Translations under genes and position numbers: made by a program
The notes under the pieces: model-generated
Told to the model about the DNA's origin: nothing
Seen by the model: only the letters and a program-made list of their open reading frames with translations
Database searches by the model: none
NCBI GenBank assembly: GCA_964642015.1
Contig: CAZXLF010000001.1
Span: 432,168 to 496,167, forward strand
Source: an uncultured Planctomycetia bacterium
GTDB taxonomy: Bacteria; Omnitrophota; Gorgyraeia; 2-02-FULL-51-18
Reading direction: 5' to 3'
DNA length: 64,000 nucleotides
Part shown: positions 17,948-39,414 of the stretch, piece by piece
How the letters are laid out: each line of letters begins with the position of its first letter
Position numbering within the stretch: the first letter of the stretch is position 1

Positions 17948-20191
17948 ATGTCTGAAACGGCACAATACATTTCAATACAGCTCAACGGTGAAAAGCGGCA
18001 GCTGCAGGAAAATAAAACTTTACTGACTCTTTTGGCCGACCTTTCTATTCCCAAGGAAAAGGTGGTCATCGAGGTGAATCTTGAGATCATTTCCAGAGAT
18101 CAATGGGCGGACCATATTTTAAAGGAAGGCGATCAGGTTGAGATCGTACATTTTGTGGGCGGCGGCGCAGAAACCGCGAAGGCCCTTGTGATCGTAGAGT
18201 CGCCGGCAAAGTGCAAGACCATCCATAAATATTTAGGGAACAATTTTGAGGTTGCGGCGTCAATGGGGCATCTTATTGATTTGCCGAGAAGCAAAATGGG
18301 CATCGATATTGAAAACAATTTTGAACCCCAGTATATCGTTGTTAAAGACAGAAAAAAAACGCTTTCTGAACTTAAGAAAAAAGCCAAAAACAAAAAAGAG
18401 ATCTTCCTAGCCTGCGATCCCGACCGTGAAGGAGAGGCGATCAGCTGGCATTTAAAAAACGAACTCGGTAAAGGGAAAAAGGTCTCTCGAGTCGTGTTCA
18501 ATGAAATCACAAAGGATGCCGTGCTTGAAGCTTTCAAACACCCGTCGCATATCGACATGTGTCTGGTGGGTGCTCAGCAGGCCAGGCGTGTGCTGGACAG
18601 GCTTGTGGGTTATTCGTTGAGCCCGCTTTTATGGCAAAAGGTGGGCCGCGGTTTGTCAGCGGGCCGTGTTCAATCCGTGGCGCTTCGTCTGATTGTTGAT
18701 CGCGAGAGAGAGATACGCGCTTTCGTGCCGGAAGAATATTGGAGCATCGAAGCCGAGCTTAAAAAAAAGAAAGGCCATTCCCATTCATTTATTGCGAAAC
18801 TTGAGAAAATTAATGACATCAAGGCGGAGATCAAGAATGAGTCTGAAGCCAAAAGACTTTATGAAAAAATAAAAACGAATGCTTTTGTCGTCAAAGAAGT
18901 CAAACAGCAGAAGAAAAAAAGGAATCCATATCCACCGTACACAACGAGCAAACTTCAGCAAGCTGCTTACAATGTTCTGCGTTTCCCTGCTTCTAAAACG
19001 ATGAAGATCGCTCAGATGCTTTATGAAGGCGTTGAGATTGGGGATGAAGGCAGCGTGGGACTCATCACCTATATGAGAACGGACTCGGTGAGGATATCCG
19101 AATCCGCGCTCAAGGAGACGCGTGAGCTGATATTAAAAAATTACGGAAAAGAATATCTGCCCGAAAAACCCAATTTTTATAAGGCCAAAAAAGAGGCGCA
19201 GCAGGCGCATGAAGCCATTCGTCCGACCTCTGTGAAACGCCGTCCGAAGGACATCGAAGAATATCTTACGCCGGACCAGTTTAAACTTTACTCTTTGATC
19301 TGGCAGCAGGCCGTATCAAGCCAGATGACGCCTGCGGTGATTGCGCAAGAAACTGCTGACATTGCCGCCGGAGAACACCTATTCCGTTCGACCGGAAGCC
19401 GTTTGGAGTTCAAAGGTTGTCTTGTGGTTCAGGAAAAATCCGAGGAGCAGGACAATCCGTTGCCCCCTCTTGCTGTTGGCGAAGTTCTTGATCTCTTAAA
19501 GCTGGAGAATCATCAGCATTTTACAAAACCGCCGGCGCGTTTCACCGATGCATCGCTTGTCAAAGCGCTTGAAGAAAGGGGGATCGGCAGGCCCTCGACT
19601 TATGCGCCCATCATCCAGACTCTGACCGGAAGAGATTATATCCGCAGAGAAGGCGGAAGCTTGGTGCCTACTGATCTGGGGATATTGGTGACGGATCTTC
19701 TGGTCCAGTATTTTTCGAAGATCCTTGATTTTGAATTTACTGCGAAGATGGAAGAAGAGCTCGATGAAGTGGAAGAGGGTAAAGCCGAATGGGTGGGCGT
19801 CGTGAAAGAGTTTTACGGTGTGTTTAGCGGTCAAATGGACCACGCAAAGACCACGATGCAGACTGTGAAGCGCCAAGAAGAGCCGACAGACGAAATCTGT
19901 GATCTTTGCGGAAAGCCGATGGTCATCAAATGGGGCCGGCGGGGAAAATTCATGAGTTGCTCAGGATGGCCCGGGTGCCGAAATGCGAAGTCTATTCCGA
20001 CAGCCGTGGTTTGTCCACAGTGTCAGATTGGCAAGCTTGTTGCGCGTCGCGCGAAATCCGGCCGAGGACGCACATTTTTTGGCTGCACCAAATACCCCGA
20101 TTGCACTTTTATGACCAACCGGTTGCCAAAAGCTGAGGGGGACGCAAAAGACGCAGGGGCAGACTCGCAAGAATCGCCGGCAGCGGAGTGA
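17948..20191 (+). CDS. topA: DNA topoisomerase I carrying an in-frame N-terminal ThiS/MoaD-like sulfur-carrier (beta-grasp) domain
   Basis: Residues 1-75 resemble E. coli ThiS as recalled from memory and end in '...GDQVEIVHFVGGG', a ThiS-type Gly-Gly terminus. With no stop codon it continues into the TopA TOPRIM N-terminus 'KALVIVESPAKCKTIHKYLG...MGHLIDLP'. The TopA body has the active-site Tyr region and two C-terminal Cys4 zinc ribbons. 747 aa. Confidence 0.9.
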   Translation: MSETAQYISIQLNGEKRQLQENKTLLTLLADLSIPKEKVVIEVNLEIISRDQWADHILKEGDQVEIVHFVGGGAETAKALVIVESPAKCKTIHKYLGNNFEVAASMGHLIDLPRSKMGIDIENNFEPQYIVVKDRKKTLSELKKKAKNKKEIFLACDPDREGEAISWHLKNELGKGKKVSRVVFNEITKDAVLEAFKHPSHIDMCLVGAQQARRVLDRLVGYSLSPLLWQKVGRGLSAGRVQSVALRLIVDREREIRAFVPEEYWSIEAELKKKKGHSHSFIAKLEKINDIKAEIKNESEAKRLYEKIKTNAFVVKEVKQQKKKRNPYPPYTTSKLQQAAYNVLRFPASKTMKIAQMLYEGVEIGDEGSVGLITYMRTDSVRISESALKETRELILKNYGKEYLPEKPNFYKAKKEAQQAHEAIRPTSVKRRPKDIEEYLTPDQFKLYSLIWQQAVSSQMTPAVIAQETADIAAGEHLFRSTGSRLEFKGCLVVQEKSEEQDNPLPPLAVGEVLDLLKLENHQHFTKPPARFTDASLVKALEERGIGRPSTYAPIIQTLTGRDYIRREGGSLVPTDLGILVTDLLVQYFSKILDFEFTAKMEEELDEVEEGKAEWVGVVKEFYGVFSGQMDHAKTTMQTVKRQEEPTDEICDLCGKPMVIKWGRRGKFMSCSGWPGCRNAKSIPTAVVCPQCQIGKLVARRAKSGRGRTFFGCTKYPDCTFMTNRLPKAEGDAKDAGADSQESPAAE

Positions 20192-21118: not shown

Positions 21119-22402
21119 ATGCGTTTAGTTTATGACATTGTTTTTTTTATTTTTTGCATATTTTATTTACCTATATTTTTTATTAAAGGTAAGCATCGAG
21201 ACGGTTTTTTATCACGCTTCGGCGTAGTACCAAAAGATGTTCGGGAAAAGTTATTTGGGAAAAAAGTGATCTGGATCCATGCGGTGTCGGTCGGAGAGAT
21301 GGCGCAGGCTGTTAAGCTCACCGGCGCTTTAAGGAACAAGTATCAGGATCTTTGCTTTGTTTTGACCGCGACAACGGCTGCAGGTAAAGCGTTCGCGGAA
21401 AAGCACAAGGATCCGCGGGATTTCGCGATTTATTTTCCGGTGGATTTTCGTTCATCCGTGAATGCTTTTCTCCTAGCAGTCGATCCGAAAGCAATGATCA
21501 TTCTTGAAACAGAGATATGGCCGAATCTGTTGTATGCGCTTTCGAAAAGAGGGGTGCCGGTATTCATCATGAATGCGAGGATCTCGGACCGCGCGATAGG
21601 GAGATACCGGCTGTTAAAACCGTTATTGGGATCGGTGATGGATCAAATCGCTTGGGTCGGCGCGCAGGATGACAAAATGCGCTCCAGATTCATGGAACTT
21701 GGCATGAAACCGGAGAAAGTGATGGTGACAGGGAATATGAAATTCGATTGGCAGCCTTCGACGACGAAGAAGAACGAAGTTGAGATGATCCAGCAATACC
21801 TTAAGATGCCAGGAATGTTTTTATTGATTGCCGGAAGCACTCATCAGGGCGAAGAGAAGATAATGTTCGATCTTTTTAAAAAAATGAGGGCCGAATTTCC
21901 ATTTTTTAAACTTTTGATTGCCCCTAGGCATTTAGACAGGATAGCGTCGATTGAAGAAGAAGCTCAGAAAAGCGGTGTGAAGCTTGAATCTTTTTCGTCT
22001 TTAGCTGGAAACGGAAACCGACCTGAAGCAAGAGAGGCAGTTTTTTTGCTGGATAAGATAGGCATCTTGGCGGATTTGTATCAAATCGCGGATGTTGTGT
22101 ATGTGGGAGGGAGTCTTGTGCCGAAAGGAGGACATAATCTCGTTGAGCCGGCCTATTATGAAAAGCCCGTTGTGTTCGGGCCGTATATGAATAATTTCGC
22201 AGAAATGGTCTCCGAGTTCAAAGAAACCGCAGCAGCCGTTCAAGTGAGAGATCTGCAATCTTTGGAGGCGGAGATCAGAAAATTGATTCAGGATAGTGCA
22301 TATAGGAATAAGATCGGGGCTGCGGCAAAAAAGGTTGTAGAAACTAATCGCGGAGCAACAGAGCAAAATATCAACGCATTTCTCAACGCAGTTCATATTT
22401 AA
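21119..22402 (+). CDS. waaA: 3-deoxy-D-manno-octulosonic acid (Kdo) transferase
   Basis: N-terminal membrane anchor plus the 'IWIHAVSVGE' motif characteristic of KdtA/WaaA (GT30). 427 aa. Confidence 0.9.
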   Translation: MRLVYDIVFFIFCIFYLPIFFIKGKHRDGFLSRFGVVPKDVREKLFGKKVIWIHAVSVGEMAQAVKLTGALRNKYQDLCFVLTATTAAGKAFAEKHKDPRDFAIYFPVDFRSSVNAFLLAVDPKAMIILETEIWPNLLYALSKRGVPVFIMNARISDRAIGRYRLLKPLLGSVMDQIAWVGAQDDKMRSRFMELGMKPEKVMVTGNMKFDWQPSTTKKNEVEMIQQYLKMPGMFLLIAGSTHQGEEKIMFDLFKKMRAEFPFFKLLIAPRHLDRIASIEEEAQKSGVKLESFSSLAGNGNRPEAREAVFLLDKIGILADLYQIADVVYVGGSLVPKGGHNLVEPAYYEKPVVFGPYMNNFAEMVSEFKETAAAVQVRDLQSLEAEIRKLIQDSAYRNKIGAAAKKVVETNRGATEQNINAFLNAVHI

Positions 22403-22416
22403 AGGAGTTGTAAGCT

Positions 22417-23397
22417 GTGAAAAAAGTCCTTGGTTCAGCATTATCATCGATCTATCGGGTCGCGCTTGTTACTAGTCAGGCAAGTTATCGCACGGTTCCT
22501 TTCAGCATCCATAAGGTGCCGGCGCGGGTGATCAGCATAGGAAATATCACATGGGGCGGCACTGGAAAAACACCTCTTGTGGCCATGCTTGCCCGTGAAA
22601 TCTCGGCCTCCGGAAAAAAAGTGGTCGTGTTGACGCGTGGCTACGGCAAAGACGAGGTAGCCGAGCTTAAGAAAAAATTACCAAATATACCTATTTTAGT
22701 TGGACGCGACAGAATTAAGACCGCCCAAGAGGCCGTTAAAAAACATCAAGCCGAAGTGATCATCTTGGATGATGGGTTTCAGCACATTCGGCTCCACAGG
22801 GATGTTGATGTTGTGACGATCAACGCTACGGAACCTTTTGGTCCCGGGGGGCTTATACCGATCGGCACTCTGAGAGAGCCGTTAGAGCATCTTTCGCGCG
22901 CACATATTTTCGTGCTTACCAAAACCAATATCGGTTCGAAAAACGTGCATTGGATTAAGCAGAAACTTGTATCGATCAAACCGGAAGCTGTTATTTATGA
23001 AGCTGTGCATCAGCCGATCCAATTAATGGATTTTCGGCGGAACCGTTATGTGCCGCTTCACGAGATTAAAAACAAAAAAATCGGAGTTATCTCCGCCATC
23101 GGCGATCCTTATTCTTTTGAAAAAAGCTTAGAAAATCTCGGCGCCGAGATCCTTTTTACCGCTCGTTATGACGACCATCATTTGGTAAGCGAAGCGGAGT
23201 TTTCAGATTTTCTCAAACGGTGCAAAGAAGTGGGAGTAAAAGACGTTGTAACAACGGAGAAGGATTTCTACAGAATGGAACCGTTTTTTAAGAAAAAGAG
23301 ACCCAAAGATATACATAACTTCAATTTTTTGGTCCTGCAGATAGAATTTCAGGTGGACGATGAAGAAGATTTTATTCGAAGATGCCTTAATCCTTAA
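22417..23397 (+). CDS. lpxK: tetraacyldisaccharide 4'-kinase
   Basis: 'ISIGNITWGGTGKTP' P-loop signature of LpxK. 326 aa. Confidence 0.9.
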   Translation: MKKVLGSALSSIYRVALVTSQASYRTVPFSIHKVPARVISIGNITWGGTGKTPLVAMLAREISASGKKVVVLTRGYGKDEVAELKKKLPNIPILVGRDRIKTAQEAVKKHQAEVIILDDGFQHIRLHRDVDVVTINATEPFGPGGLIPIGTLREPLEHLSRAHIFVLTKTNIGSKNVHWIKQKLVSIKPEAVIYEAVHQPIQLMDFRRNRYVPLHEIKNKKIGVISAIGDPYSFEKSLENLGAEILFTARYDDHHLVSEAEFSDFLKRCKEVGVKDVVTTEKDFYRMEPFFKKKRPKDIHNFNFLVLQIEFQVDDEEDFIRRCLNP

Positions 23398-25330
23398 TAC
23401 GGTCAAGTTTCTTCGCGCTCTTGTCCGTGTCCTTCCTTTAAGGGTCGCTTTCGCCGCCGCAAGTTTTATAGGGTCGGCCATCTATATTTTTAGCAAGCGC
23501 CGGAAAATTGCGTATAAAAACCTTCGTGCTGCATTCTCGAAAGAAATGGAACGTGCCGAGATGAAGAAGATTGCGCGTTCATCGATGAGGAATCTGGCGA
23601 TGTGCGGTGTTGAACTGCTGAAATTCCCGGAAATGAACCGGCGATACATCGAAGAAAACGTTCGGATCATCGGCACGGAAAAGATTAATGAAAAGCTAAA
23701 AGAAGGGAGAGGCGCGATATTTTTGACTGCGCATTTCGGTTGCTGGGAGCTTCTGAATTTGGCTTCAAATCTTGTCGGTTATCCGATGGTCGCTTTGGCC
23801 CGTACACAAAAGCATCCGAGGTCTGATGAATTTTTAAATTCCCTTCGCACATCCAAAGGAAACCAGGTCATCCGCAAAGGCATGCCGGTGCGCGAAATCC
23901 TTAAAGCATTGAAAAGCGGTAAGATCGTCGGCATGTTGAGCGACCAGGATGGGGGAAAGAACGGGACTTTTGTGAAGTTCTTTGGCAGGCAGTCCTCGAG
24001 CCCGAGCGGTGTGGCAACCTTCGCCTTGCGTACCCATGCCCCAATATTCCCTGTTTTTATATTCCGTGAAAAGCTAGGTAAACACCGCGTTGAAGTGGGT
24101 GATCCGCTCATCCGGCCCTCAGATGAGTTGCCTCCCGAGGAAGCGGAACGCAATATCCTTCAACAGTTTGCCAAGATTCTTGAGTCAAAAATAAGAAAAG
24201 CGCCTGACCAATGGCTCTGGGCGCATCGGCGATGGAAATCCACGCCAAATCGCTCAATAGTTATTTTGAGCGACGGAAAGCAAGGGCATCTTAACCAGTC
24301 GCTGGCGGTCTTGAATGGTGTCTGCAGAGAACGTGAGTCGCAGTCTGTTCCGCCAGAGTACACGAACTCGAAGATCATCAACGTGCATTTTAAAAATGAT
24401 TTTTCCAAGCATCTGCTGAACATCATGTCCATTTTATTTTTTGGGCATATACCATTCAAACCATGGGTAATGAAAAATTTTTTAAGTCAGGATTGTTACG
24501 CTGAAATTATGAAAAGCTATGCGGATATCGTTATTTCATGCGGTTCGTCTATTTGTGCTGTGAACCTGCTTGTCAAACATGAGAATCTTGCAAAATCGAT
24601 CGTGATCATGAAACCGGCCGTGCCTTCCTATCATTTTGATGCCGTAATCGTGCCTAGGCATGATAAAATAAAAGGAAAAAATAATATTTTTTTTACCCAG
24701 ACAACTTTATCGAATATCACTGAGGAAATTTTAAGCACTGAATCCGATAAGCTGCTTGACCGACTTTCAATATCGCGTGACCGCAAGCGTATCGGTTTTT
24801 TGGTCGGGGGAGACACGTTGAAGGTCAGATTCTCGCAGAGTTATTTCACAAAACTTCTGCAGGAATTGAAGCGTTTCAGCGTGGACACCGGCGCTTATCT
24901 TTTGGCTACATCATCGAGACGCACGCCTCGATGGGCGGACGAACTCTTAAAAAAGACGTTGAACGAAAAAAAACAATGTCCACTTTTGGTGATAGCAAAT
25001 GAGTCCAACCAAAAAGGCGTTGTGTCGGGGATATTGGGTCTTAGTGATCTACTGGTAGTATCCGGCGAATCCATGTCGATGGTTTCCGAAGCGATCGCTT
25101 CACACAAACCGGTTGTGGTATTTTTACCTTCGCAGAAAGGGCGTCTTAAGCCGAAACATGAGGATTTTTTGAATAGAATGTTCGATCAAAAACTCATCGC
25201 AAAAGCCACGCCTGAAAACCTTTATCAAATTATCAACGAACAAATGTTATCGAATAACGGACGGCATGCCGAATCGTTGATCTCGCAAGATCGTGAAGCA
25301 GTGTCGAATGCCGTAAGGCGGGCCATCTAA
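23360..25330 (+). CDS. lpxL: lipid A biosynthesis lauroyl/myristoyl acyltransferase (LpxL/HtrB family) fused to a C-terminal Elm1/DUF1022-like domain
   Basis: Residues about 1-300 carry an N-terminal TM helix, the 'HFGCWE' HX4E acyltransferase motif and the 'DQWLWAHRRWK' ending typical of LpxL. Residues about 300-656 carry 'IVILSDGKQGHLNQSLAV', 'ISCGSS', 'LVGGD', 'LATSSRRTP' and 'VSGESMSMVSEA' motifs reminiscent of the Elm1 / DUF1022 family. Confidence 0.8.
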   Translation: MKKILFEDALILNTVKFLRALVRVLPLRVAFAAASFIGSAIYIFSKRRKIAYKNLRAAFSKEMERAEMKKIARSSMRNLAMCGVELLKFPEMNRRYIEENVRIIGTEKINEKLKEGRGAIFLTAHFGCWELLNLASNLVGYPMVALARTQKHPRSDEFLNSLRTSKGNQVIRKGMPVREILKALKSGKIVGMLSDQDGGKNGTFVKFFGRQSSSPSGVATFALRTHAPIFPVFIFREKLGKHRVEVGDPLIRPSDELPPEEAERNILQQFAKILESKIRKAPDQWLWAHRRWKSTPNRSIVILSDGKQGHLNQSLAVLNGVCRERESQSVPPEYTNSKIINVHFKNDFSKHLLNIMSILFFGHIPFKPWVMKNFLSQDCYAEIMKSYADIVISCGSSICAVNLLVKHENLAKSIVIMKPAVPSYHFDAVIVPRHDKIKGKNNIFFTQTTLSNITEEILSTESDKLLDRLSISRDRKRIGFLVGGDTLKVRFSQSYFTKLLQELKRFSVDTGAYLLATSSRRTPRWADELLKKTLNEKKQCPLLVIANESNQKGVVSGILGLSDLLVVSGESMSMVSEAIASHKPVVVFLPSQKGRLKPKHEDFLNRMFDQKLIAKATPENLYQIINEQMLSNNGRHAESLISQDREAVSNAVRRAI

Positions 25331-27468
25331 TGAATGTTCTTCAAATGTTACCTGAACTGAAATCAGGCGGTGTTGAACGAGGCACGATAGACCTCGCTAA
25401 ATATCTTCAAAAAAATGGGCATAAGGCCGTTGTTGTTTCGGCAGGAGGTCCGTTGACCGGAGATCTGACTTCGGCCGGAGTGACGCATTATGCATTGCCG
25501 GTGCACAAAAAATCCCCGTTTTCAGTGTTCCATTCGGTGCGTGCGATCTCAAAGATCGTCAAAATAGAGAATATAGACATTATCCATGCCCGCAGCCGTG
25601 TTCCGGGGTTGATAGCTTTTTTTGTCAGTCGCAAAACTCACGTGCCATTCGTGACCACTTGCCATGGATTTTATAGCAAGCATATTTTAAGCCGGATCAT
25701 GGGTTGGGGAAAACTGGTGATTGTCGCAAGCCACATTATCGGCAAGAGAATGAGGGACGATTTCGGCGTGCCCTATCATAAGATAAGGTTCATTCCCAGG
25801 GGAGTGAATCTGGAAGAATTTAAATGGCGTCCCATTGACCCGGAAAGTTTTAAAAAACAGATCGTGATAGGTCTTATCGGCAGGATCACTCCGATCAAAG
25901 GCCACCCGCTTTTTTTGAAAGCTATGGCAAGGGTGACGCGCGTATACCCGAATATCAAGATCCAGATAGTCGGAGATTCTCCTAAGCCTCAGTATCGAGA
26001 AGAGCTTTTGATGTTAACTCGGCGTCTCGGGATTGCTCATGCTGTGGAGTTTTTGGGGACCAGATACGATATTCCGGAGCTCCTGAGCCGTATGAGCTTA
26101 TTGGTTGTGCCATCTGTTGGAGAAGAGGCATTCGGACGCGTGGCGATCGAGGCAGGCGCTTGCGGTGTCCCCGTTGTAGCGACGCGGATGGGCGGGTTGG
26201 TCGACATCATTGAGAATGAAAAGGATGGTTTATTGGTCCAGCCTGATGATCCGTCCGCACTGGCGGAAGCGGTCATAAAACTGTTGAGAGATCCGGAGCT
26301 TGCATCAAAACTTGCTTTGTCGCTTCGTCAAAAGGTTGAGCGGGAATTCAACCTTGAAAACATGTTTGAAAAAACGATAGCGGTTTACCAGGAAGCGATT
26401 TCAACAAAAAGAATATTGGTGATTAAATTAAGTGCGGTCGGCGATGTGATTTTGAGCATTCCATCGATTCGCGCATTAAGAGCGAAATTTCCCGGCGCCT
26501 GGATTTCAGTGCTTGTCGGAAGAAAATCCAGGAAGATCATCCGCAACTGCCCCTATGTGAACGATACGATCGTCTACGAGGATTCGCCAGGTCAGAAGAA
26601 TTATACCGGAACATTCAGGATGGCGCGCCTTCTAGCGAAGGAGGATTTTGATATTGTTGTGGATCTTCAGAATAATAAGGTCAGCCATTTGCTTTCTTAT
26701 CTTTGCGGGGCCAGGGTCCGCGTCGGACATGATAACCGCAAATGGTCTTTTCTTTTGAATAAGAAAGCAAAGAATTCTAATAACGGTTCTTTGCCGCCTC
26801 TTGAGCATCAGTTCAAGGTGCTGAAGCTTTTAGGGCTTGAAACTTTTGACAAGCGTCTTGAGCTTTGGACCGAAAAAGAAGAGGACCGTGCTGTCGCTGA
26901 ATTTTTACAGTCCCAATGGGTTTCTCCCAGCCAGACGCTTGTAGGGATCAATCCGGGATCATCATTACGCTGGCCGACAAAACAATGGCCGATCGAGAAC
27001 TTTGCCAAACTTTGCGATGAATTGGCCAAAAGAAATATTCGTGTGGTGATTACGGGTTCCGCGGAAGATTCAAAAATTGCTGCAGAATTGTTCCGTTTGA
27101 CAAGAAATAAGCCCATCAATGCCATTGGTAAAACTTCAATCACAGAGCTTGTGTCTTTGATCCGGCGCTGCCAGGTTTTCATTAGTTCTGATTCGGCGCC
27201 AATGCATATTGCATCCAGTGTTGATGCCCCTCTCATCGCAATATTCGGTCCTACGGACCCTAAACGGCATTTGGTTCCTCCGTCGCGTTATCAAGTATTC
27301 TGGAAAGAAGTGCAATGCAGTCCATGTTACTTGCGTAGCTGCCCCATAGGTCTCTTGTGTATGAAGCGCATCGGTGTTCAAGAAATACTCGACTCCGTGC
27401 TTTATTTCATAAAAGAGAAGCGGCCAACAAAGCTTGGCGAAGAAAATCTAGCCGCGCAGCTTTTCTAG
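25330..27468 (+). CDS. bifunctional glycosyltransferase: N-terminal GT4 (GT-B, EX7E) domain fused to a C-terminal GT9 ADP-heptose:LPS heptosyltransferase domain
   Basis: N-terminal half has 'GGVERGTIDLAKYLQKNGH' and 'EEAFGRVAIEAGACGVPVVATRMGGLVDIIENEKDGLL' (GT4 EX7E). C-terminal half starts 'ILVIKLSAVGDVILSIPSIRALRAKFPGAWISVLV' (GT9 signature). The end of the C-terminal half carries 'PMHIASSVDAPLIAIFGPTDP' and the Cys4 tail CSPC...C...C. Confidence 0.8.
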   Translation: MNVLQMLPELKSGGVERGTIDLAKYLQKNGHKAVVVSAGGPLTGDLTSAGVTHYALPVHKKSPFSVFHSVRAISKIVKIENIDIIHARSRVPGLIAFFVSRKTHVPFVTTCHGFYSKHILSRIMGWGKLVIVASHIIGKRMRDDFGVPYHKIRFIPRGVNLEEFKWRPIDPESFKKQIVIGLIGRITPIKGHPLFLKAMARVTRVYPNIKIQIVGDSPKPQYREELLMLTRRLGIAHAVEFLGTRYDIPELLSRMSLLVVPSVGEEAFGRVAIEAGACGVPVVATRMGGLVDIIENEKDGLLVQPDDPSALAEAVIKLLRDPELASKLALSLRQKVEREFNLENMFEKTIAVYQEAISTKRILVIKLSAVGDVILSIPSIRALRAKFPGAWISVLVGRKSRKIIRNCPYVNDTIVYEDSPGQKNYTGTFRMARLLAKEDFDIVVDLQNNKVSHLLSYLCGARVRVGHDNRKWSFLLNKKAKNSNNGSLPPLEHQFKVLKLLGLETFDKRLELWTEKEEDRAVAEFLQSQWVSPSQTLVGINPGSSLRWPTKQWPIENFAKLCDELAKRNIRVVITGSAEDSKIAAELFRLTRNKPINAIGKTSITELVSLIRRCQVFISSDSAPMHIASSVDAPLIAIFGPTDPKRHLVPPSRYQVFWKEVQCSPCYLRSCPIGLLCMKRIGVQEILDSVLYFIKEKRPTKLGEENLAAQLF

Positions 27469-27483: not shown

Positions 27484-28254
27484 ATGAAAAGAATTGTGTT
27501 CGTTTTCGCGGTTTTGTTCGCACTTTATGCGTTTGGCAGATCGATTTATCAAGTCCCGGTGCTGATGTATCATCATGTGGGGGACGTTGCTGAGAACTCG
27601 AAGCTTAACGTAAGCCCTGAGACTTTCGAGCGCCAGATGGAATTTTTGAAGCTCCACCATTATCGCGTCATGTCGTTCGAAGATTTGATCGGGCATATCC
27701 GGATAGGCCAAGGGGTCCCGCGAAACACGGTTGCGATCACGTTTGACGACGGCTACCTTGATAATTTTGTCAACGCATTCCCGATTTTAAAGAAAATGGA
27801 TTTTCCGGCGACGATTTTCATGATCACCGGGAACATCGGAAAAAAAGGATGGCTGAGTGAAGAGGATCTTAGGATATTGGACTCGTCGGGGATCTCGATC
27901 GGCAGTCACACTGTCAATCATGTTTTTTTACCTCATCTTAAAAGAGAAGACGCCATTTTTGAGATCAGCCAGTCACGCAACCAATTAGAAAAGATCCTGG
28001 GTCATCCGGTATTTTTATTCAGTTATCCTGCCGGAGGCGTGACGGAGGATATCAAAAAACTTGTCATGCAGGAAGGCTATCACGGCGCTGTTACGACGAA
28101 TTACGGTGATTCCAAAGATGATCTTTATGCATTTCGTCGTGTGAAGATCACGGAAAATGACGGAAATCTTTTTAGCCTTTGGGCTAAAGTGAGCGGCCTC
28201 TATTCTTTCGGTCGACGCCGTGTCAAAATGGAAACGGAAGGGATGGTCGTTTAG
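27484..28254 (+). CDS. secreted polysaccharide deacetylase (NodB-homology / CE4 domain)
   Basis: Signal-peptide-like N-terminus. 'AITFDDGYLDNF' motif 1 (TFDDG) and His motifs 'SHTVNH'. 256 aa. Confidence 0.8.
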   Translation: MKRIVFVFAVLFALYAFGRSIYQVPVLMYHHVGDVAENSKLNVSPETFERQMEFLKLHHYRVMSFEDLIGHIRIGQGVPRNTVAITFDDGYLDNFVNAFPILKKMDFPATIFMITGNIGKKGWLSEEDLRILDSSGISIGSHTVNHVFLPHLKREDAIFEISQSRNQLEKILGHPVFLFSYPAGGVTEDIKKLVMQEGYHGAVTTNYGDSKDDLYAFRRVKITENDGNLFSLWAKVSGLYSFGRRRVKMETEGMVV

Positions 28255-28256
28255 GT

Positions 28257-29282
28257 TTGGGACCCCGTATCTTGATCGTGAACGTGAATTGGATCGGCGA
28301 TGTTTTATTCTCTACACCGGCGATCCGCGCGATCAAAAAAAGATATCCTAAAAGTTTTTTAGCCTGTCTGGTCCCAAAACGTTGCGTGAATATTTTGAAC
28401 AATAATCCGTACCTTGACGAGATCATCGTAGGGGAGGATCGGGCGCCGTTTTACGCGCTGTTCAAGCATATGCGGATGATCTCCGCTCTCAGGCAAAGGC
28501 GATTTGACAGCGCTATATTTTTTCACCGCTCAAAAACAAGGGTCTTGTGGGCTTGGTTGGCCGGTGTACGCGAAAGAGTCGGTTACCAAGACCCGGGTAA
28601 AAAGCGGCTTTTGACCAAGTCGTGCCCCCGACCCGGAACAGAAATCCACAAAACAGATTATTTTTTGCGTCTTTTAGAATTTTTGGGCATACCTGCTGAT
28701 GGACGGGAACCCGATTTTTATCCACGTAAGGAAGCGCTGCCTGAACTTGCGGAGCTTCTGAGGGGTCACGGAATCCTGCCCGAGGATAAATATATCGTTG
28801 TTCATCCCGGAGGGAATTGGGATCTTAAACGCTGGCCATCGTCCTATTTTTCGGAGTGGATAAGACTTTTCATAAAAAGATCGAATTGGAAAGTCATTCT
28901 TTGCGGAACGATCAGTGAAGAATCGCTTTGTAAGAAGATCTTGTCGGAAGTTCAAAATCCGAAAGTCATTTCTTTTTGCGGAAAAACTTCAATTGATACT
29001 TTAGCGCTTTTGTTAAAAAACGCCGAGTTGCTTGTCTCCAATGATTCTGGTCCGATCCATTTGGCCGCCAGTCAGGGGACCGAGATCATCGGTCTTTTTG
29101 GGCCAACGACGCCGGCACTTACGGGCCCCATATCTCGAGGCCGGTCGTTGATATTAAGAAAAGATGTGGGCTGTGAAATCCCTTGTTATTTCCGTTCCTG
29201 CGACCATCGTGTCTGCATGGAATGGCTTAAGCCAGAAGAAGTCCATGAGAATACTTTGAAATTTTTGGATCAGAGATCATGA
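28257..29282 (+). CDS. LPS heptosyltransferase (GT9)
   Basis: 'RILIVNVNWIGDVLFSTPAIRAIKKRYP' N-terminus. 'VSNDSGPIHLAASQGTEIIGLFGPTTP'. C-terminal CEIPC...C...C motif. TTG start. Confidence 0.85.
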   Translation: MGPRILIVNVNWIGDVLFSTPAIRAIKKRYPKSFLACLVPKRCVNILNNNPYLDEIIVGEDRAPFYALFKHMRMISALRQRRFDSAIFFHRSKTRVLWAWLAGVRERVGYQDPGKKRLLTKSCPRPGTEIHKTDYFLRLLEFLGIPADGREPDFYPRKEALPELAELLRGHGILPEDKYIVVHPGGNWDLKRWPSSYFSEWIRLFIKRSNWKVILCGTISEESLCKKILSEVQNPKVISFCGKTSIDTLALLLKNAELLVSNDSGPIHLAASQGTEIIGLFGPTTPALTGPISRGRSLILRKDVGCEIPCYFRSCDHRVCMEWLKPEEVHENTLKFLDQRS

Positions 29283-31330
29283 CGCCGGACGCTAAAGAGA
29301 TCCGCAGGATCCTTGTTGTGACGCTTTCCAATCTTGGGGACGTGATCCTAACGTTGCCTGTGCTCCAAAGCCTCCATGCTAATTTTCCCAAAGCGGAATT
29401 GCATGTCGTGGTCAGCGCCTCAGCTGCGGAAGTTTTTCAAGGCGATGGACGGATCGCAAAAGTTATTCTGTACGATAAAAGATCCGACTGGCGCAAAAAG
29501 ATCGATTTCATCAAAGGAATCCGCCGAGAAAAGTATTCTTTGATCGTTGATCTCAGACGTTCATTGATAGGGTTATTGGGCGGATCAAGGTTCAGAAATT
29601 CTTATTTTAATTTTTCGCAGCGCACAATACACAGAACAAAGAAGCACTTAAGTGCACTTGACAATATTCTTGGAAGGAATACCGCTGATATCTCATTTCT
29701 TAAGGTCTCGTCACCGGAGACCCTCGCGAAGAACGCGTATATTAGAAACGATCAGAAACTTGTTGTAGCGTCCGTTGGCTCCAAAAGTGATGTCAAAAAA
29801 TGGCCCGCTGAATATTTTGCGGGACTGCTGGATCGATTAGCTGTGAATGATCATTGTCAGATCGTGTTGATCGGCGATAAGCACGACGTGCCGGATGCGC
29901 AAAAGGTGAGAAGTTTGATGCAAAGCTCGGTCATTGATCTTTGTGGGCGCACAAACTTTAAAGAATTATGCGGGGTTTTGAAGATGGCGTCGCTTGTGAT
30001 CACGAACGACAGTGCACCGCTTCATATTGCGGATTCCTTAAAAATACCTGTCTTAGCCATTTTTGGACCAACCGATCCCAGAAAGTATGGACCCCGTCAC
30101 GCTGGAAGCATGGCTGTCCGTAAAGATCTTTTTTGTTCGCCTTGCGAGAAGGCACAGTGCCGCTATGACCATGAATGCATGAAGGATTTGGGTATTGAGG
30201 AGGTTTACCAGAAGTGTTTGCAGATATTAAACGATGAATTTCAGCCGAAAAATCTAAAGATCCTGATGATCCGGTTGGACAGGATCGGTGACGTGGTCCT
30301 GTCGCTGCCGGCCGTTCAAGCGGTCCGCGACCGCTTTCCCAACGCGACTATTTCGATGATGGTGCGCCCCTATACGCGTGCGATCGTGGACGGTCATCCG
30401 GCGATTGACGAAGTGATCGAATACGATTATGAAAAAAATGGAAGACACGGAGGCTTGATCGGTAATATAAGGTTCTTGCGCGAGATCATCAAAAGGCATT
30501 TTGATATCGCGTTCATTTTGAATCCAAGCAACCGTTCTTACAATCTGCCCTTTTTAGCGGGCATCCCTTACAGAATAGGCTTTAGGTCAAGATTTCCTTT
30601 TCTTTTGACCCAGAGCATTTCTGACAGAAGGCATGAGGGGTCGAAGCAGGAATCCGAGTATACATTGGATATCGTAAAAGCTTTTGGTATCGATCAGCCG
30701 GCAACTCTTCCAAAATTAAATATAACTCCTTATGACAATCTTTTACTGTCTAAGCTCTTGGAAAGGCGCGGCTGCACATCGACAGCCGAGCTTATTGCTT
30801 TGCATCCAGGCGCCAGCTGTGCGTCAAAAAGATGGCCCGTGAAGTATTTTGCCGAACTGGGAAAAAAAATCCTTGATGAAACATCTTATCAAATCGTGGT
30901 GATCGGCGGACCTTATGAAAAATCGACAGGCGAAGTCTTAAAAAAAGAACTTGGCGAGCGATCGACTGATTTGACCGGAGCACTTGATCTAAAAATGCTC
31001 TCGACGCTTTTAAGTCGCTGCAGACTTTTAATTTCGAACGACTCGGGGCCCGTGCATATTGCCGCAGCCGTTGGCACCAAGACGCTGACGATTTTCGGAA
31101 GAAATCAAGCCGGCTTGAGCCCGGTCCGTTGGCGCGCGTTGGGTAAGGGGCATGCTGTGATCCAAAAAGATGTGGGTTGCGTCGTATGTCTTGCGCATCG
31201 TTGCGCGATAAACTTTGAATGTCTTCGGGCCATTGAACCTGAAGAAGTTTATAAGATTTTTAGTCAAATGATCTCGGGCAGTGACCGGAAGTTTTTGGAT
31301 TTGGAACAGACGGCCACGGCCGGGTTTTAG
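29279..31330 (+). CDS. tandem (duplicated) LPS heptosyltransferase: two complete GT9 modules in one 683-aa polypeptide
   Basis: Module 1 is 'ILVVTLSNLGDVILTLPVLQSLHANFP ... ITNDSAPLHIADSLKIPVLAIFGPTDP ... CSPCEKAQCRYDHEC'. Module 2 is 'ILMIRLDRIGDVVLSLPAVQAVRDRFPNA ... ISNDSGPVHIAAAVGTKTLTIFG ... CVVCLAHRCAINFEC'. Confidence 0.85.
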   Translation: MTPDAKEIRRILVVTLSNLGDVILTLPVLQSLHANFPKAELHVVVSASAAEVFQGDGRIAKVILYDKRSDWRKKIDFIKGIRREKYSLIVDLRRSLIGLLGGSRFRNSYFNFSQRTIHRTKKHLSALDNILGRNTADISFLKVSSPETLAKNAYIRNDQKLVVASVGSKSDVKKWPAEYFAGLLDRLAVNDHCQIVLIGDKHDVPDAQKVRSLMQSSVIDLCGRTNFKELCGVLKMASLVITNDSAPLHIADSLKIPVLAIFGPTDPRKYGPRHAGSMAVRKDLFCSPCEKAQCRYDHECMKDLGIEEVYQKCLQILNDEFQPKNLKILMIRLDRIGDVVLSLPAVQAVRDRFPNATISMMVRPYTRAIVDGHPAIDEVIEYDYEKNGRHGGLIGNIRFLREIIKRHFDIAFILNPSNRSYNLPFLAGIPYRIGFRSRFPFLLTQSISDRRHEGSKQESEYTLDIVKAFGIDQPATLPKLNITPYDNLLLSKLLERRGCTSTAELIALHPGASCASKRWPVKYFAELGKKILDETSYQIVVIGGPYEKSTGEVLKKELGERSTDLTGALDLKMLSTLLSRCRLLISNDSGPVHIAAAVGTKTLTIFGRNQAGLSPVRWRALGKGHAVIQKDVGCVVCLAHRCAINFECLRAIEPEEVYKIFSQMISGSDRKFLDLEQTATAGF

Positions 31331-31336
31331 ACAGAA

Positions 31337-32179
31337 ATGCCGAAGGACTCTCCGCTGTTTCGTCAAAGAATATTGCGGTTATTTTTGATCGTTTTTCTGT
31401 TGTCCACCGCAGGTTTTTTTCAAACCGCATCATCCTCGAAAAATTTTTCCTCCAAGAAAAAAGAGGCAGCCGAGCCGAGCAGCCTCGGAGCGCCTCTAAA
31501 AACTTTCGAAGTGGGCGAAGCGCTTGTATTCGACGTGTCTTGGATGGGCATACCGGTAGGTTCCGGCACTCTCCAAGTGAAAGAAAAGGTAAAAATTCAT
31601 GGACGCGAGGCTTTTCATGTCGTGGCGATCGCACAGACCAACGATTTTTTGACGAAGATCTACCCGATCTATGATGAGATCCACAGTTTTATAGACACGC
31701 AGGAGTTTTATTCGCTGGAATTCCGAAAAAATCTGAAAGAAGGGCGTTACCGGGCGGATGAAGTGGTTGTTTATGATCACGAGAATAAAATAGCTCATTA
31801 CGAATCTTTTCGCAGCCACGATAAGAAAGAGATCCAAATTCCCCCAAAAGTCCACGATCTGATCAGTGCCTTTTTTTGGTTTAGACTCCAACCCTGGGAA
31901 GTTGGTAAAAGTCTCCATACGGTCGTGAATAGCGAAGAGCAGAACTGGGATCTTGAAGTAGATGTTTTAAAGCAGGAGACAAAGAATCTCAGAGGCGGTC
32001 GGGTAATAGAAACCGTGCTGGTCGAGCCCAAAACGCGCTTAAAAGGCGTCTTTTACGATCGCGGGAGGGCATGGGTCAACTTCACAATCGATTCAAAGAG
32101 GGCCCCGATTTGGATCAAGCTTCAGACTCCATTCGGGCCGATGATCGGCGCGTTGCGTGCGAAAGGCTTAAGCGATTGA
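31337..32179 (+). CDS. hypothetical secreted/periplasmic protein, possibly DUF3108 family
   Basis: N-terminal hydrophobic signal segment 'LRLFLIVFLLSTAGFF'. Beta-rich composition. 280 aa. Assignment to DUF3108 is from memory of family motifs and is uncertain. Confidence 0.45.
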   Translation: MPKDSPLFRQRILRLFLIVFLLSTAGFFQTASSSKNFSSKKKEAAEPSSLGAPLKTFEVGEALVFDVSWMGIPVGSGTLQVKEKVKIHGREAFHVVAIAQTNDFLTKIYPIYDEIHSFIDTQEFYSLEFRKNLKEGRYRADEVVVYDHENKIAHYESFRSHDKKEIQIPPKVHDLISAFFWFRLQPWEVGKSLHTVVNSEEQNWDLEVDVLKQETKNLRGGRVIETVLVEPKTRLKGVFYDRGRAWVNFTIDSKRAPIWIKLQTPFGPMIGALRAKGLSD

Positions 32180-33230: not shown

Positions 33231-33968
33231 ATGGACGCGATAGGGATCATCCCTGCCAGATACGGATCTACCCGTTTTGAAGGAAAGGTACTGAAAGACC
33301 TTTGTGGAAAACCGGTCATTCAGCATGTCTATGAGCGCGCCAAAAAAGCAAAGACACTGGATGATCTTATCATTGCGGCCGATGATGACAGGATCATTAA
33401 GGTCGTCGAGGGTTTTGGCGGGAAAGTGGTGTTTACCTCTAAATCTCATTCGACCGGCACGGACCGCTTGACCGAGGTCGTCAATGAGATCGATGTGCGC
33501 ATCGTTGTGAACATCCAGGGCGATGAACCTCTGATCAATCCTTTGGTGATCGATGATCTTGTGAGAACCATGCAAGATGATTCAGAGATCGTCATGGCGA
33601 CCGTCGTGAAGAAAAGTCATTCGGAGGAAGAATTTAGAAGCCCGGATGTTGTGAAGGCGATCGTCAGCGATCAGAATTACGCGCTTTATTTTTCTCGTTC
33701 GCCGATTCCCATTTTTTTGAAACCAGGGCCCGAAAATTATTTCTATAAACACATCGGGATTTATGCTTACAACAAGGATTTTTTATTCACGTTCAAAAAA
33801 TTGCCCGTTTCTTATCTTGAGGCAAATGAAAGATTGGAACAACTTCGTGCGCTAGAAAATGGTTACCGTATCAAGGCCATCGAAACAAAATTTGAGACGG
33901 TCGGCGTCGATACTCCACAGGACCTTGAGCTGGCAAAAGAAATTTTAGAGAAAGAGCAAAATGGCTAG
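33231..33968 (+). CDS. kdsB: 3-deoxy-manno-octulosonate cytidylyltransferase (CMP-Kdo synthetase)
   Basis: '[33 protein letters not shown]' N-terminus and 'NIQGDEPLI' motif. 245 aa. Confidence 0.9.
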
Positions 33969-35574
33969 ATATATTTTTATTACAGGAGGAGTGGTTTCAA
34001 GTTTAGGCAAAGGGATCGTATCGGCATCGATCGGGAAATTGCTTGAATCCAAAGGGCTCAAAGTGATCATGATGAAGTGCGATCCTTATCTGAATGTGGA
34101 TCCGGGGACGATGAGCCCATATCAGCACGGCGAGGTTTATGTGACCGAAGACGGAGCTGAGACAGATCTTGATCTGGGGCACTATGAGCGTTTCACAAAT
34201 GCAGAACCCAGTAAGCTCAACAATGTTACAACCGGAAAGATCTATTACTCCGTTATCACCAAAGAACGTCACGGCGATTATTTAGGTGCCACGGTCCAAG
34301 TTGTTCCGCACATAACAGATGAAATTAAAGCTGCCATTAAGAACGCTTCTCATAATAAAACAGCGGACGTTGTGATCTGCGAGATCGGCGGGACAGTGGG
34401 TGATATTGAAAGTCTGCCGTTCTTGGAAGCGATCAGACAATTCAGACAGGATATCGGCCGGGATCATGCGATCAATATCCATTTGACTCTGATTCCTTAT
34501 ATCCGCGTGGCGGATGAGATCAAAACCAAGCCTACGCAGCACAGCGTCGGCAAAATGCGTGAGATCGGTATCCAGCCGGATATTTTGATGTGCCGTACCG
34601 AAAAACGTCTTTCAAAAGATGTGCGCGAGAAGATCGCTCTTTTCTGCAATGTGGAACCTGATCAAGTGATCCAGGCGCTTGACGTGAGCGAAATATACGA
34701 AGTTCCTTTGGCTCTAAAAGAAGAAGGTCTTGATGCGATCATCATCCGGTTATTGAAGTTAAATTGTGATGACGGCGATGAAAAACTGAAGGCATGGAAG
34801 ACCAATGTTGTCGATAAAGTTTTAAGTCCGTCGAGGCACGTCGTCATCGGTTTTGTCGGAAAATATATCGAGCTTCAGGATGCTTATAAATCCGTTTATG
34901 AGGCGCTGAAACACGGCGGGATCGCCAATGATGCAAAGGTCGAGATACGGAAAGTCGATGCCGAAGATCTGATCGTACACGGGTCCGAGAAATATTTGAA
35001 AGAAGTCAACGGCATTTTGGTTCCCGGCGGATTCGGCGATCGCGGGATCGAAGGAAAGATCAAAGCTATCAAGTACGCAAGAGAAAACAAGATCCCATTT
35101 TTTGGTATTTGTCTTGGCATGCAATGCGCGGTGATCGAGTTCTCGAGAAATGTCTGCGGAATGGGCCGCGCGAATTCCACCGAGTTCAATAAGACCACGC
35201 CCTTTCCGGTGATCAGTCTTCTCGAGGAGCAAAAACGCGTGAATGACTTGGGCGGCACGATGCGTCTCGGCTCTTATCCCTGCACGATCAAGAAAGGCAC
35301 AAAGACGCATAAAGCTTATGGAAAAGATTCTATACATGAACGTCATCGTCATCGCTATGAGTTCAATAACAAATATAAAGTAAAGATGGAAACCAGCGGA
35401 TTAATTGTCTCCGGCACAAGCCCTAATGGAAGGCTAGTGGAGATTATTGAACTAGTAGATCATCCCTGGTTCATCGGCTGCCAATTTCATCCGGAATTCA
35501 AATCCAAACCCGATCAAGCTCACCCATTGTTCCGCGAATTCGTGAGGGCATCGCTCGCTCACAAGGTGGATTAG
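33961..35574 (+). CDS. pyrG: CTP synthase
   Basis: '[19 protein letters not shown]' N-terminus. Glutamine amidotransferase domain '[14 protein letters not shown]'. 537 aa. Confidence 0.95.
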
Positions 35575-35576: not shown

Positions 35577-36422
35577 GTGAAAACCGCCGAAATGAAATCT
35601 CGCAGCGTGCAAATAGGAAAAATAACAGTTGGTCTCGGTAAGCCGTTGGTCCTTATTGCCGGACCCTGTGTCATTGAGAATGAGAAAAGCGCGCTTCGCC
35701 ATGCTTTTGCGATCAAAAAGATCGCCGATCGTTTGAAAATCCCGTATATTTACAAATCGAGTTATGACAAAGCCAATCGGAGCTCATCTGATTCCTTCCG
35801 CGGTTTGGGAATGAGGGAAGGTTTACAAATTTTGAATAAGATAAAACAAGAAACAGGGCTCCCGATCCTGACCGATATTCACGGCGTTGAGGATGCCTAT
35901 AAAGCTTCTGCAGTAGCGGACATACTGCAGATCCCGGCTTTTCTTTGCCGTCAAACGGACCTCGTCGTTGCAGCCGCGAAGACCGGTAGAGTTGTGAATG
36001 TGAAAAAAGGACAATTTTTGGCTCCGTGGGACATGAAGAACATCGTTCATAAAATAGAGAAAGCAGGAAGTCACAAGATCCTTTTAACCGAGCGCGGGAC
36101 ATCGTTCGGATACAACACGCTTGTCAGTGATTTTCGCGCCATTCCCATCATGAAAGAACTGGGTTATCCGGTCATTTTTGACGCGACGCATTCGGTGCAG
36201 CAGCCCGGAGGGCGCGGAACAAGCTCCGGCGGAGAAAGGCGTTTTGTGCCGATTTTAGCCCAGGCGGCCGTTGCGGTGGGTGTGGATGGAGTATTCATGG
36301 AAGTGCATGAGGATCCCGATCACGCGCCAAGCGATGGCCCCAACATGGTCCCTTTAAAGGATCTCGAAGCGCTTTTAGAACGTCTTCTTAAATTGAATCG
36401 GGCGGTGAAAAATGCCGATTAA
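35577..36422 (+). CDS. kdsA: 2-dehydro-3-deoxyphosphooctonate aldolase (Kdo-8-phosphate synthase)
   Basis: '[10 protein letters not shown]' motif and KDOPS-type '[12 protein letters not shown]' motif. 281 aa. GTG at 35577, or ATG at 35592. Confidence 0.9.
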
Positions 36423-37913: not shown

Positions 37914-38711
37914 ATGGCCGGAGGATTTCAGCGTAACCGTTTCATTAATTTTTTTCTTGTCGGCTGTTTGGCCGCCGCGGCCTTATCGATCTTTCTTTTG
38001 ACACATGAAAGAAAGCTTAAGGAAGAAGCGGCCGAGGCACGTAAAAAAAGAGAGCCCACTGCGGCGAGCGTCGATCAAAGTTTGCAAAAATTCAGTCTTA
38101 CCGGTTTTGACGACAAGGGAAAGAAATTTTGGAATCTGGAAGGCGATAAGGCCCGCATTGATCCGGGACAGGTCGTATTTTTGGACCAAAATGTAACGCT
38201 CAAACTGCAGGACACGACTGTGATCAAGACGGATCACGTGCAGTGGTCACAGGACGGCGGTGTTTTAAGGACCCCCTCACAGGTTTTTGTGACCCATCAG
38301 AACGCCGATGTGAAAGGCCGTGGCGCTGTGGGCAGATTGAATGATAGCTTTATACAGCTGAACCGCGATATTCAAATGCTGATCAACAAATCAACGCTTT
38401 TGACCTGCACGGGCCCGCTTAAGATCTATTACAAGCAAAATAAGATGATATTTTATCGTAAGGTGAAAGTGGTCGATGACAGAGGAGTTTTGAAAGCCAA
38501 CCGCATGGACGTGATCTTCGATCCTGATCAGAAAAAAGTAACGCAGATCATTGCGATCGGGAATGTCACGATCGAACGAGGCACCGATACTACGCATTCT
38601 CAACGCGCGATCTATTCTTTGGCCACCGGTTCTGTGCGCTTGGAAGGCAATCCGGAGATCACGCTGCATAAAGAAAGCTCTAAACTGCTAGATGCCCCTC
38701 TTAGAAACTAA
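37914..38711 (+). CDS. lptC: LPS-transport periplasmic protein of the LptC/LptA (OstA-like beta-jellyroll) family, N-terminally membrane-anchored
   Basis: Single N-terminal TM helix '[20 protein letters not shown]' followed by about 240 aa of beta-rich sequence. It occupies the canonical lptC-lptA slot between kdsC and lptB. At 265 aa it is longer than a typical LptC, so it may cover both LptC and LptA roles. Confidence 0.6.
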
Positions 38712-39414
38712 ATTATTAAGGAAGTCTTACAATGGCCGCGCGGTCGTGAATGGCGTCGATATTTTCATCAATCCCGGCGAGATCGTAGGGCTTCTGGGGC
38801 CCAATGGCGCAGGAAAAACGACCACTTTTTATATGGTCACAGGCATTGTCAAAGCTGACAGCGGAAGCATTATGTTTGATCACCGCGATGTAAGCAAATA
38901 TCCGATCCATAAAAGGGCCCAGTTGGGAATAGGATACCTTTCTCAGGAACCGTCTATCTTCAGAAAATTGACCGTCGAGGAAAATATTTTAGCGATCCTT
39001 GAAACACTGGACCTTCCCAGGCGCGAGCGTGCTAAACGGCTCGAGCAACTTTTGAATGAATTAGGCATCGCGCATCTGAGAAAATCAAAAGCGCTTACGC
39101 TTTCAGGCGGAGAGCGCCGTCGCCTGGAGATCACGCGCGCTTTAGTGACTCATCCTTTGTGCATTTTGTTGGATGAGCCGTTTTCGGGGATCGATCCGAT
39201 CGCCGTCTCCGATTGCCAAAACCTTATCCGCGAACTGAAAAACAAAGGTCTTGGGATCCTTTTGACGGATCACAATGTCAGAGAAACTCTGGCAATTACG
39301 GACCGCGCCTATATTATGTCGGAAGGCAAGATATTGATCTCAGGCACGAAAGACGACCTTTTAACGAACAAGGAGGCAAGGCGTATTTACCTAGGCGAAA
39401 AGTTTACGATGTAG
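38692..39414 (+). CDS. lptB: LPS export ABC transporter ATP-binding protein
   Basis: '[40 protein letters not shown]' Walker A. '[15 protein letters not shown]' signature motif. '[12 protein letters not shown]' Walker B. 240 aa. Confidence 0.9.

Follow-up and report, generated by a model that had tools for sequence, protein, structure and literature searches.

Why should an LpxL-type acyltransferase of lipid A biosynthesis continue into an ELM1-like domain, and what might that second domain do? The question is posed by one gene in a stretch of 64,000 nucleotides (nt) from an uncultured bacterium of the Omnitrophota lineage (GCA_964642015.1, contig CAZXLF010000001.1, positions 432,168 to 496,167), which was analyzed at its full length and is referred to here as the window. 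An earlier note, made from the DNA letters alone, had described an open reading frame (ORF) of 656 amino acids (aa) at 23360-25330 on the + strand, and we found it exactly as described, together with the motifs that had been quoted from it: HFGCWE at aa 125-130, WLWAHRRWK at 285-293, LVGGD at 481-485, LATSSRRTP at 515-523, ILSDGKQGHLNQSL at aa ~302-315 and VSGESMSMVSEA at 567-578. The encoded protein is very probably bifunctional, an acyltransferase and a glycosyltransferase in one chain, both acting on lipid A that carries 3-deoxy-D-manno-oct-2-ulosonic acid (Kdo). The gene and its parts are as follows.

23360..25330, + strand: lpxL::kdoT-like fusion gene, 656 aa, ATG start (ORF listing, Pfam, motif positions)
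23360..24238, + strand: LpxL-type lipid A late acyltransferase domain, aa 1-293 (PF03279, Foldseek, phmmer)
23732..23749, + strand: HX4E catalytic dyad HFGCWE, H125 and E130 (alignment)
24239..24256, + strand: linker STPNRS, 6 residues, between the LpxL end WLWAHRRWK and the first beta-strand of the glycosyltransferase B (GT-B) fold (alignment, model)
24257..25327, + strand: KdoT-family (ELM1/GtrOC1, PF06258) GT-B glycosyltransferase domain, aa 300-656 (PF06258, BLASTP, hhalign, model, Foldseek)
24269..24289, + strand: SDGKQGH motif, in which D305 and H310 align with D8 and H13 of KdoT (alignments)
24659..24664, + strand: H434-D435, aligned with H109-D110 of KdoT (alignments; unchanged)
24914..24925, + strand: SRRT motif, S519-R520-R521-T522, in which R521 aligns with the KdoT activity residue R180 (71 of 71 proteins)
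25064..25081, + strand: GESMSM, a motif in the C-terminal Rossmann half that aligns with TEDSVSM of KdoT (alignments)

The first 300 or so residues have the features of a complete late acyltransferase, as the earlier note had held. In a hidden Markov model search, PF03279 (Lip_A_acyltrans) matched aa 18-293 with E=2.7e-54 and 184.8 bits (cutoff 22.3), covering profile positions 22-294 of 295. H125, G127, W129 and E130 were unchanged in every member of an alignment of 71 fusion proteins that are 40-70% identical. An AlphaFold2 model of the fusion, built on this alignment, reached a predicted local distance difference test score (pLDDT) of 91.7 and a predicted template modelling score (pTM) of 0.87, the latter indicating that the two domains are confidently placed relative to each other in the prediction. 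Foldseek matched the modelled N-terminal half to LpxM (5KNK/5KN7, E ~1e-13, target template modelling score 0.67) and also to PatA, and by sequence the best PDB match in phmmer was again LpxM (5kn7, 2.8e-13). Hydrophobic helices occupy aa 2-24 and 27-44 of the model, and the highest Kyte-Doolittle mean over 19 residues, 1.65 from aa 20, is borderline. With E. coli LpxL and Acinetobacter baumannii LpxM (5KN7), the N-terminal half shares PF03279, the HX4E dyad, a putative N-terminal hydrophobic anchor, the WxWxHRRWK C-terminus and a position in an operon with waaA and lpxK, in addition to the fold match to 5KN7. It differs from LpxM in being only ~22% identical and in that the window protein carries a C-terminal glycosyltransferase of 357 aa.

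The assignment of the remaining residues to the ELM1/DUF1022 family likewise stood, since PF06258 (Mito_fiss_Elm1) matched aa 370-640 with E=3.6e-48 and 164.7 bits (cutoff 27); the SDGKxGH strand at the N-terminus of the ELM1 domain begins at aa 300, ahead of the region matched by Pfam. The C-terminal half is predicted to adopt a GT-B fold, as had been proposed: the AlphaFold2 model consists of two Rossmann-like halves and a C-terminal helix with pLDDT >90, and Foldseek returned GT-B enzymes at prob 1.00, including WaaF (1PSW), MshA and TreT, along with UDP-sugar 2-epimerases. A sequence search detected no solved structure for this half.

The earlier note had added that bacterial members of the family lack any biochemically defined function, a statement that is outdated, because a member has since been purified and assayed (PMC10936431, PMC12856342). 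In A. baumannii, deletion of A1S_2903, which encodes an ELM1-like protein, cuts the core back to Kdo2-lipid A (VanOtterloo et al., mBio 2024, PMC10936431), and the purified protein, renamed KdoT, moves Kdo from cytidine monophosphate (CMP)-Kdo onto Kdo2-lipid IVA (Journal of Biological Chemistry, Dec 2025, PMC12856342). KdoT is inactive on lipid IVA and favours a tetra-acylated substrate over a hexa-acylated one (~40% against ~20% conversion); its activity needs R180 of the invariant SRRT motif, which is proposed to contact the carboxylate of the donor Kdo (PMC12856342). After KdoT, the glycosyltransferase family 4 (GT4) enzyme GnaT (LpsB) adds N-acetylglucosaminuronic acid (GlcNAcA) to the third Kdo, KdoIII (PMC12856342). 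A kdoT deletion was complemented by Acinetobacter homologues, including those of A. nosocomialis and A. calcoaceticus, and partly by a Rickettsia homologue; according to the same study, no PF06258 protein is in a CAZy GT family (PMC12856342).

For a direct comparison, KdoT peptides were rebuilt from the primers given in PMC12856342, and a cloning primer was used to retrieve Acinetobacter orthologues from reference genomes; these orthologues score 195-202 bits on PF06258. The C-terminal half of the window protein matched A. nosocomialis KdoT end to end in BLASTP (KdoT residues 3-275, 23% identity, E=2e-14), and alignment of the two family profiles with hhalign gave 99.6% probability and E=5.7e-25 over 264 columns. 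KdoT residues D8, H13, H109, D110, R179 and R180 correspond to D305, H310, H434, D435, R520 and R521, and all six are constant in the 71 fusion proteins, whose C-terminal halves are only 30-60% identical to that of the window. From these alignments the C-terminal half appears to be a distant, end-to-end homologue of KdoT. It shares with KdoT the Pfam family, the GT-B fold, SRRT and all of the mutagenized positions, and an association with genes for Kdo-lipid A. The two differ in their setting: KdoT, 294-296 aa in the recovered Acinetobacter orthologues, is peripherally membrane-associated, whereas the window domain is the C-terminal half of a protein of 656 aa, presumably anchored through LpxL, and kdoT lies beside ilvE at the outer-core locus in Acinetobacter, whereas the window gene follows waaA-lpxK. 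With plant ELM1, the Arabidopsis mitochondrial fission factor after which PF06258 is named, the half shares the Pfam domain, but that protein is a eukaryotic DRP3A adaptor with no known glycosyltransferase activity, and the ELM1 name is misleading for bacterial PF06258 proteins.

The fusion itself is genuine and conserved in the Omnitrophota lineage. An identical ORF with the same neighbours came from an independent source, the Logan assembly of run SRR12313480. When 5.8 billion proteins were searched, 377 matched; among the best 120 of these (40-100% identity) almost all had both Pfam domains, one truncated entry having PF03279 only, and the full-length members measure ~650 aa. With the C-terminal half as query, HMMER was run exhaustively against 1.84 billion cluster representatives (50% identity) and gave 2,689 family members at E<=1e-3; among the nearest 150, both domains were found in 114, namely 88 complete fusions and 26 that end at contig ends, and only about a dozen were true standalone ELM1 proteins. 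The segment from K293 to D305 measured exactly 13 residues in all 71 aligned fusion proteins, and neither GC content nor skew showed a discontinuity at the junction. Mean identity across this alignment was 58% for the N-terminal and 43% for the C-terminal half, so the latter evolves faster. The named carriers are metagenome-assembled genomes (MAGs) of Candidatus Omnitrophota/Omnitrophica, plus one labelled Eisenbacteria. In that MAG (locus L018; GCA_035496715.1, DATJEK010000063.1) the fusion, at 51% identity, sits in complete Omnitrophota-type synteny, and the label could reflect a mis-binned or mislabelled contig or a lateral transfer of the whole cluster. The literature search found no paper describing an LpxL-ELM1 fusion, and NCBI names the proteins variously 'ELM1/GtrOC1 family putative glycosyltransferase', 'KDO2-lipid IV(A) lauroyltransferase' and 'mitochondrial fission ELM1 family protein'.

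The fusion gene is embedded in a cluster for lipopolysaccharide (LPS) biosynthesis, where it directly follows waaA and lpxK, as the earlier note had seen. Its start overlaps the 3' end of lpxK by 38 nt, and its TAA stop shares 1 nt with the ATG of the next gene (TAATG). The genes around it are listed below.

21119..22402, + strand: waaA, Kdo transferase of family GT30 (PF04413 E=1.5e-55; NF004388 E=3.6e-102)
22417..23397, + strand: lpxK, tetraacyldisaccharide 4'-kinase (PF02606 E=1.8e-68; TIGR00682 above cutoff)
25330..27468, + strand: GT4::GT9 fusion gene, 712 aa, with GT4 at aa 1-356 (25330-26409) and a heptosyltransferase-II-like GT9 domain at aa 361-689 (TIGR02195, 163 bits vs 134.6)
27484-28254, + strand: polysaccharide deacetylase (Pfam)
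28257-29282, + strand: GT9 (Pfam)
29279-31330, + strand: tandem GT9::GT9, 683 aa (Pfam)
31337-32179, + strand: DUF3108 protein
33231-33968, + strand: kdsB, CMP-Kdo supply
33961-35574, + strand: pyrG, CMP-Kdo supply
35577-36422, + strand: kdsA, CMP-Kdo supply
36412-37371, + strand: kdsD, CMP-Kdo supply
37380-37913, + strand: kdsC, CMP-Kdo supply
37914..39414, + strand: LptC/LptA-like ORF and lptB, LPS export

The translationally coupled gene that follows the fusion provides a second link to the Acinetobacter pathway. GnaT was retrieved from metagenome contigs via a primer in PMC12856342, and the GT4 half of the window gene matched it over the full length (33% identity, E=6e-64). PDB entry 7mi0_A was the outstanding top match of both proteins (2.3e-52 for the window GT4 half and 2.9e-43 for GnaT), the next-best PDB matches being at 5e-25 and 2e-16, respectively; this common top match places the two in one GT4 subfamily. 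A solved structure of the GnaT subfamily thus apparently exists already. The entry is deposited only as 'Glycosyltransferase', and presumably it is a Rickettsia structural-genomics target. A GT4 of the type that acts next in the A. baumannii pathway is therefore encoded next in the genome at the window locus: KdoT-like and GnaT-like steps fall to adjacent, coupled genes here and to unlinked ones in Acinetobacter. At the window locus the pairing consists in gene adjacency alone, and the same pairing occurs at the unfused locus L020.

The gene order dprA-topA-xerC-waaA-lpxK-fusion-GT4::GT9-deacetylase-GT9-GT9::GT9-DUF3108-pfkB-kdsB is kept in relatives at 43-51% identity. Two unfused loci were also inspected. 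L019 has a window-like synteny but apparently separate genes, an lpxL of 291 aa that ends in WKTRP-stop and an ELM1 of 355 aa with a TTG start, the TGA stop of the former overlapping the TTG start of the latter by 4 nt (L019:6129-8068). The pair may be a genuine split form, or have arisen by fission of a fused gene, or reflect an indel error in a contig of low coverage (its name contains '3x'). In L020, ELM1 and the GnaT-like GT4 that follows it (32% identity, E=8e-40) are both standalone, and the two form a pair that diverges from kdsB-waaA-lpxL-DUF374 and lies beside an msbA-like ABC transporter gene. The view that standalone copies sit next to lpxK/waaA therefore held in these two loci but failed in Acinetobacter, where in the reference genomes kdoT comes after ilvE at the outer-core locus. 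At L020:2774-4332 (- strand), the gene after lpxL encodes a DUF374 protein (PF04028); we take DUF374 to be the LpxJ family of late acyltransferases, and this lineage may pair LpxL with LpxJ.

Several further observations concern the cluster and its surroundings. The deacetylase, GT9 and GT9::GT9 genes (27484..31330) are the remaining core-oligosaccharide genes. Together with the lpxL::kdoT-like gene, the GT4::GT9 and GT9::GT9 fusions, which are also kept in relatives, bring to three the genes of the LPS cluster that encode two-domain enzymes. In each of the four syntenic loci (the window, L016, L017 and L018), the DUF3108 gene keeps its place after the glycosyltransferase genes and ahead of pfkB/kdsB, and a PfkB kinase gene lies between it and kdsB. 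The LptC/LptA-like gene at 37914-38711 (+) is a single ORF of 265 aa, with LptC at aa 62-153 and an LptA/LptD_N fold at aa 172-253, directly upstream of lptB. The remainder of the 64-kb window holds housekeeping genes, and no paralogue of either half of the fusion was found in it. All ORFs with a family assignment in window 1-64000 lie on the + strand in one long co-directional array with many start/stop overlaps; the minus-strand ORFs overlap assigned + strand ORFs and look spurious. Upstream, topA (17948-20191, +, 747 aa) has an N-terminal extension of ~75 aa that resembles a ThiS/MoaD ubiquitin-like domain and ends in GGG, an unusual fusion. For its L016 orthologue, of 758 aa, both PF02597 (ThiS) and Toprim/Topoisom_bac are on record, and topA of L017 and L019 (664-676 aa) is without the extension.

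These data suggest a scheme in which both halves work on one lipid. On the cytoplasmic side of the inner membrane, the adjacent WaaA would make Kdo2-lipid IVA, and the LpxL N-terminal helices would anchor the fusion protein there. The LpxL-type domain, through HX4E, would add a secondary acyl chain to the Kdo-glycosylated lipid IVA, and the KdoT-like domain would extend the Kdo2 of the same lipid by one more sugar, which is most likely a third Kdo donated by CMP-Kdo; the GnaT-like GT4 domain of the next gene would then extend that sugar, with the GT9 enzymes following. Kdo2-lipid IVA is the substrate of LpxL. Because it is also the substrate that KdoT prefers, the fusion would join two enzymes that either vie for one lipid or process it one after the other. 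The earlier note had proposed action on the lipid A-Kdo intermediate, by further transfer or by scaffolding; the first option agrees with the activity of the characterized KdoT, and the second is disfavoured by the invariance of the KdoT functional residues. For the specific claim that the C-terminal half adds a third Kdo from CMP-Kdo, we lean towards acceptance on the grounds of the alignments and the conserved partner. What we infer is CMP-Kdo as the donor, the site of attachment on the acceptor, which of the two reactions comes first and any gain in kinetics from joining the domains. Multifunctional WaaA (GT30) and E. coli WaaZ are the classical routes to a third Kdo, and they would give the same product class (Kdo3-lipid A) with the same donor at the cytoplasmic face of the inner membrane; their families are unrelated to that of the KdoT-like domain or related at the fold level only, and the window has a separate waaA gene.

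A number of points weigh against this assignment. A. baumannii is without heptose, and its KdoIII, in alpha-2,5 linkage, occupies O5 of KdoI, the usual position of the first heptose. The window cluster, by contrast, has four GT9 (heptosyltransferase-family) domains and the PfkB kinase, so that enzymes of the heptosyltransferase family apparently take part in building the host core as well; the four domains and the heptose-type kinase suggest a heptose-containing core, and because KdoIII takes the usual heptose position in A. baumannii, the acceptor position may differ here. The identity of the C-terminal half to characterized KdoT is only 23-26%, a level at which the donor and acceptor specificity of GT-B enzymes can change. 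The D8A, H13A, H109A and D110A mutants of KdoT kept activity (PMC12856342), which makes the conservation of the equivalent residues weak evidence of catalysis and leaves the SRRT arginine as the only functionally validated residue in KdoT. As for the acyltransferase, the N-terminal half matched all 17 NCBIfam late-acyltransferase equivalogs below cutoff (best NF006270, 167.9 bits vs 248); among these models it was assigned to none of the LpxL, LpxM or LpxP equivalogs, which leaves it an LpxL-type enzyme with no assigned specificity for acyl chain or position.

Several of these points would favour a protein of the same bifunctional architecture whose C-terminal half transfers a different sugar, for instance a hexose or another ulosonic or uronic acid, or places the sugar at another position than A. 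baumannii KdoT does. We regard this alternative as possible, though not probable. The 23% identity, the faster evolution of the half and the presence of heptosyltransferase-family domains, which normally use O5 of KdoI, are all consistent with it, as is an insertion of ~25 residues relative to KdoT in the N-terminal (acceptor-side) Rossmann half. It is opposed by the invariance of SRRT, the proposed contact of the donor carboxylate, by the full CMP-Kdo pathway encoded in the same cluster and by the retention of a GnaT-like partner; moreover, a kdoT deletion is still complemented by the Rickettsia homologue, which comes from a different class of Proteobacteria.

A stronger version of the bifunctional scheme deserves mention, although we consider it rather unlikely. 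A junction that never varies in length and has almost no linker, together with a fixed domain arrangement predicted with confidence, could point to an obligate two-site assembly line, in which one bound Kdo2-lipid IVA would be both acylated and Kdo-glycosylated without release, and in which the 'split Kdo' pathway (KdoT, then GnaT) would be ancient and spread well beyond Proteobacteria, possibly with another donor sugar here. If so, lipid A maturation would be coupled to the start of the core, unlike the situation with free LpxL and KdoT, and the locus would give the first evidence of a 'split Kdo' pathway, separate from WaaA, as ancient and far beyond Proteobacteria.

It is improbable that WaaA of this lineage is monofunctional and that the KdoT-like domain adds the second Kdo, the fusion thereby completing Kdo2-lipid A. 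Mono-, bi- or trifunctionality of WaaA is not readable from its sequence, the window WaaA scores below all NCBIfam equivalog cutoffs, and a tight waaA-lpxK-fusion operon would suit such a division of labour; nevertheless, there is no sign of a mono-Kdo acceptor at the window locus, the presence of a GnaT-like partner gene mirrors the KdoIII-GlcNAcA steps, and the characterized KdoT, which was assayed only on lipid IVA and Kdo2-lipid IVA, was active on the latter. We find it more improbable still that the ELM1-like domain is catalytically dead and serves LpxL by scaffolding or by binding substrate. Plant ELM1 is reported to be an adaptor, not an enzyme (Arimura 2008, cited in PMC10936431), and KdoT is without an identified catalytic base (PMC12856342); however, the SRRT, HD, SDGxxGH and GESxSM motifs are constant in 71 proteins with such divergent C-terminal halves, and standalone relatives, unattached to LpxL, adjoin GnaT-like genes. 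That the long ORF results from a frameshift or mis-assembly near 24.2 kb joining two neighbouring genes, an outcome foreseen in the earlier note and for which only the separate genes of L019 might speak, has next to no likelihood and is already refuted for practical purposes by the independent assembly, the 114 fused forms among the nearest 150 representatives, the constant junction length and the unbroken composition, the L019 split, on a contig labelled 3x, being itself the suspect form.

Much of the novelty that had been claimed for this gene is removed by the published function of KdoT and by the 'ELM1/GtrOC1 family putative glycosyltransferase' names at NCBI. Both domains come from known, characterized families and the proteins are in public databases, so this is not a categorically new system. 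KdoT was, however, defined only in late 2025, and its homologues have so far been tested only in Acinetobacter and Rickettsia (PMC12856342). The present locus identifies the KdoT family and its GnaT-type partner as a conserved part of the LPS core cluster in the distant, mostly uncultivated Omnitrophota. As a Rosetta-stone case, the fusion to LpxL supports, without recourse to the Acinetobacter biochemistry, the view that KdoT-type enzymes work at the late-acylation step and on the same lipid. For annotators, it is a reason to drop the 'mitochondrial fission ELM1' and plain 'lauroyltransferase' labels. These observations lend comparative support to the recently proposed KdoT/GnaT pathway and extend it to a distant phylum, and they offer a natural bifunctional enzyme with which the coupling of KdoIII addition and secondary acylation may be probed.

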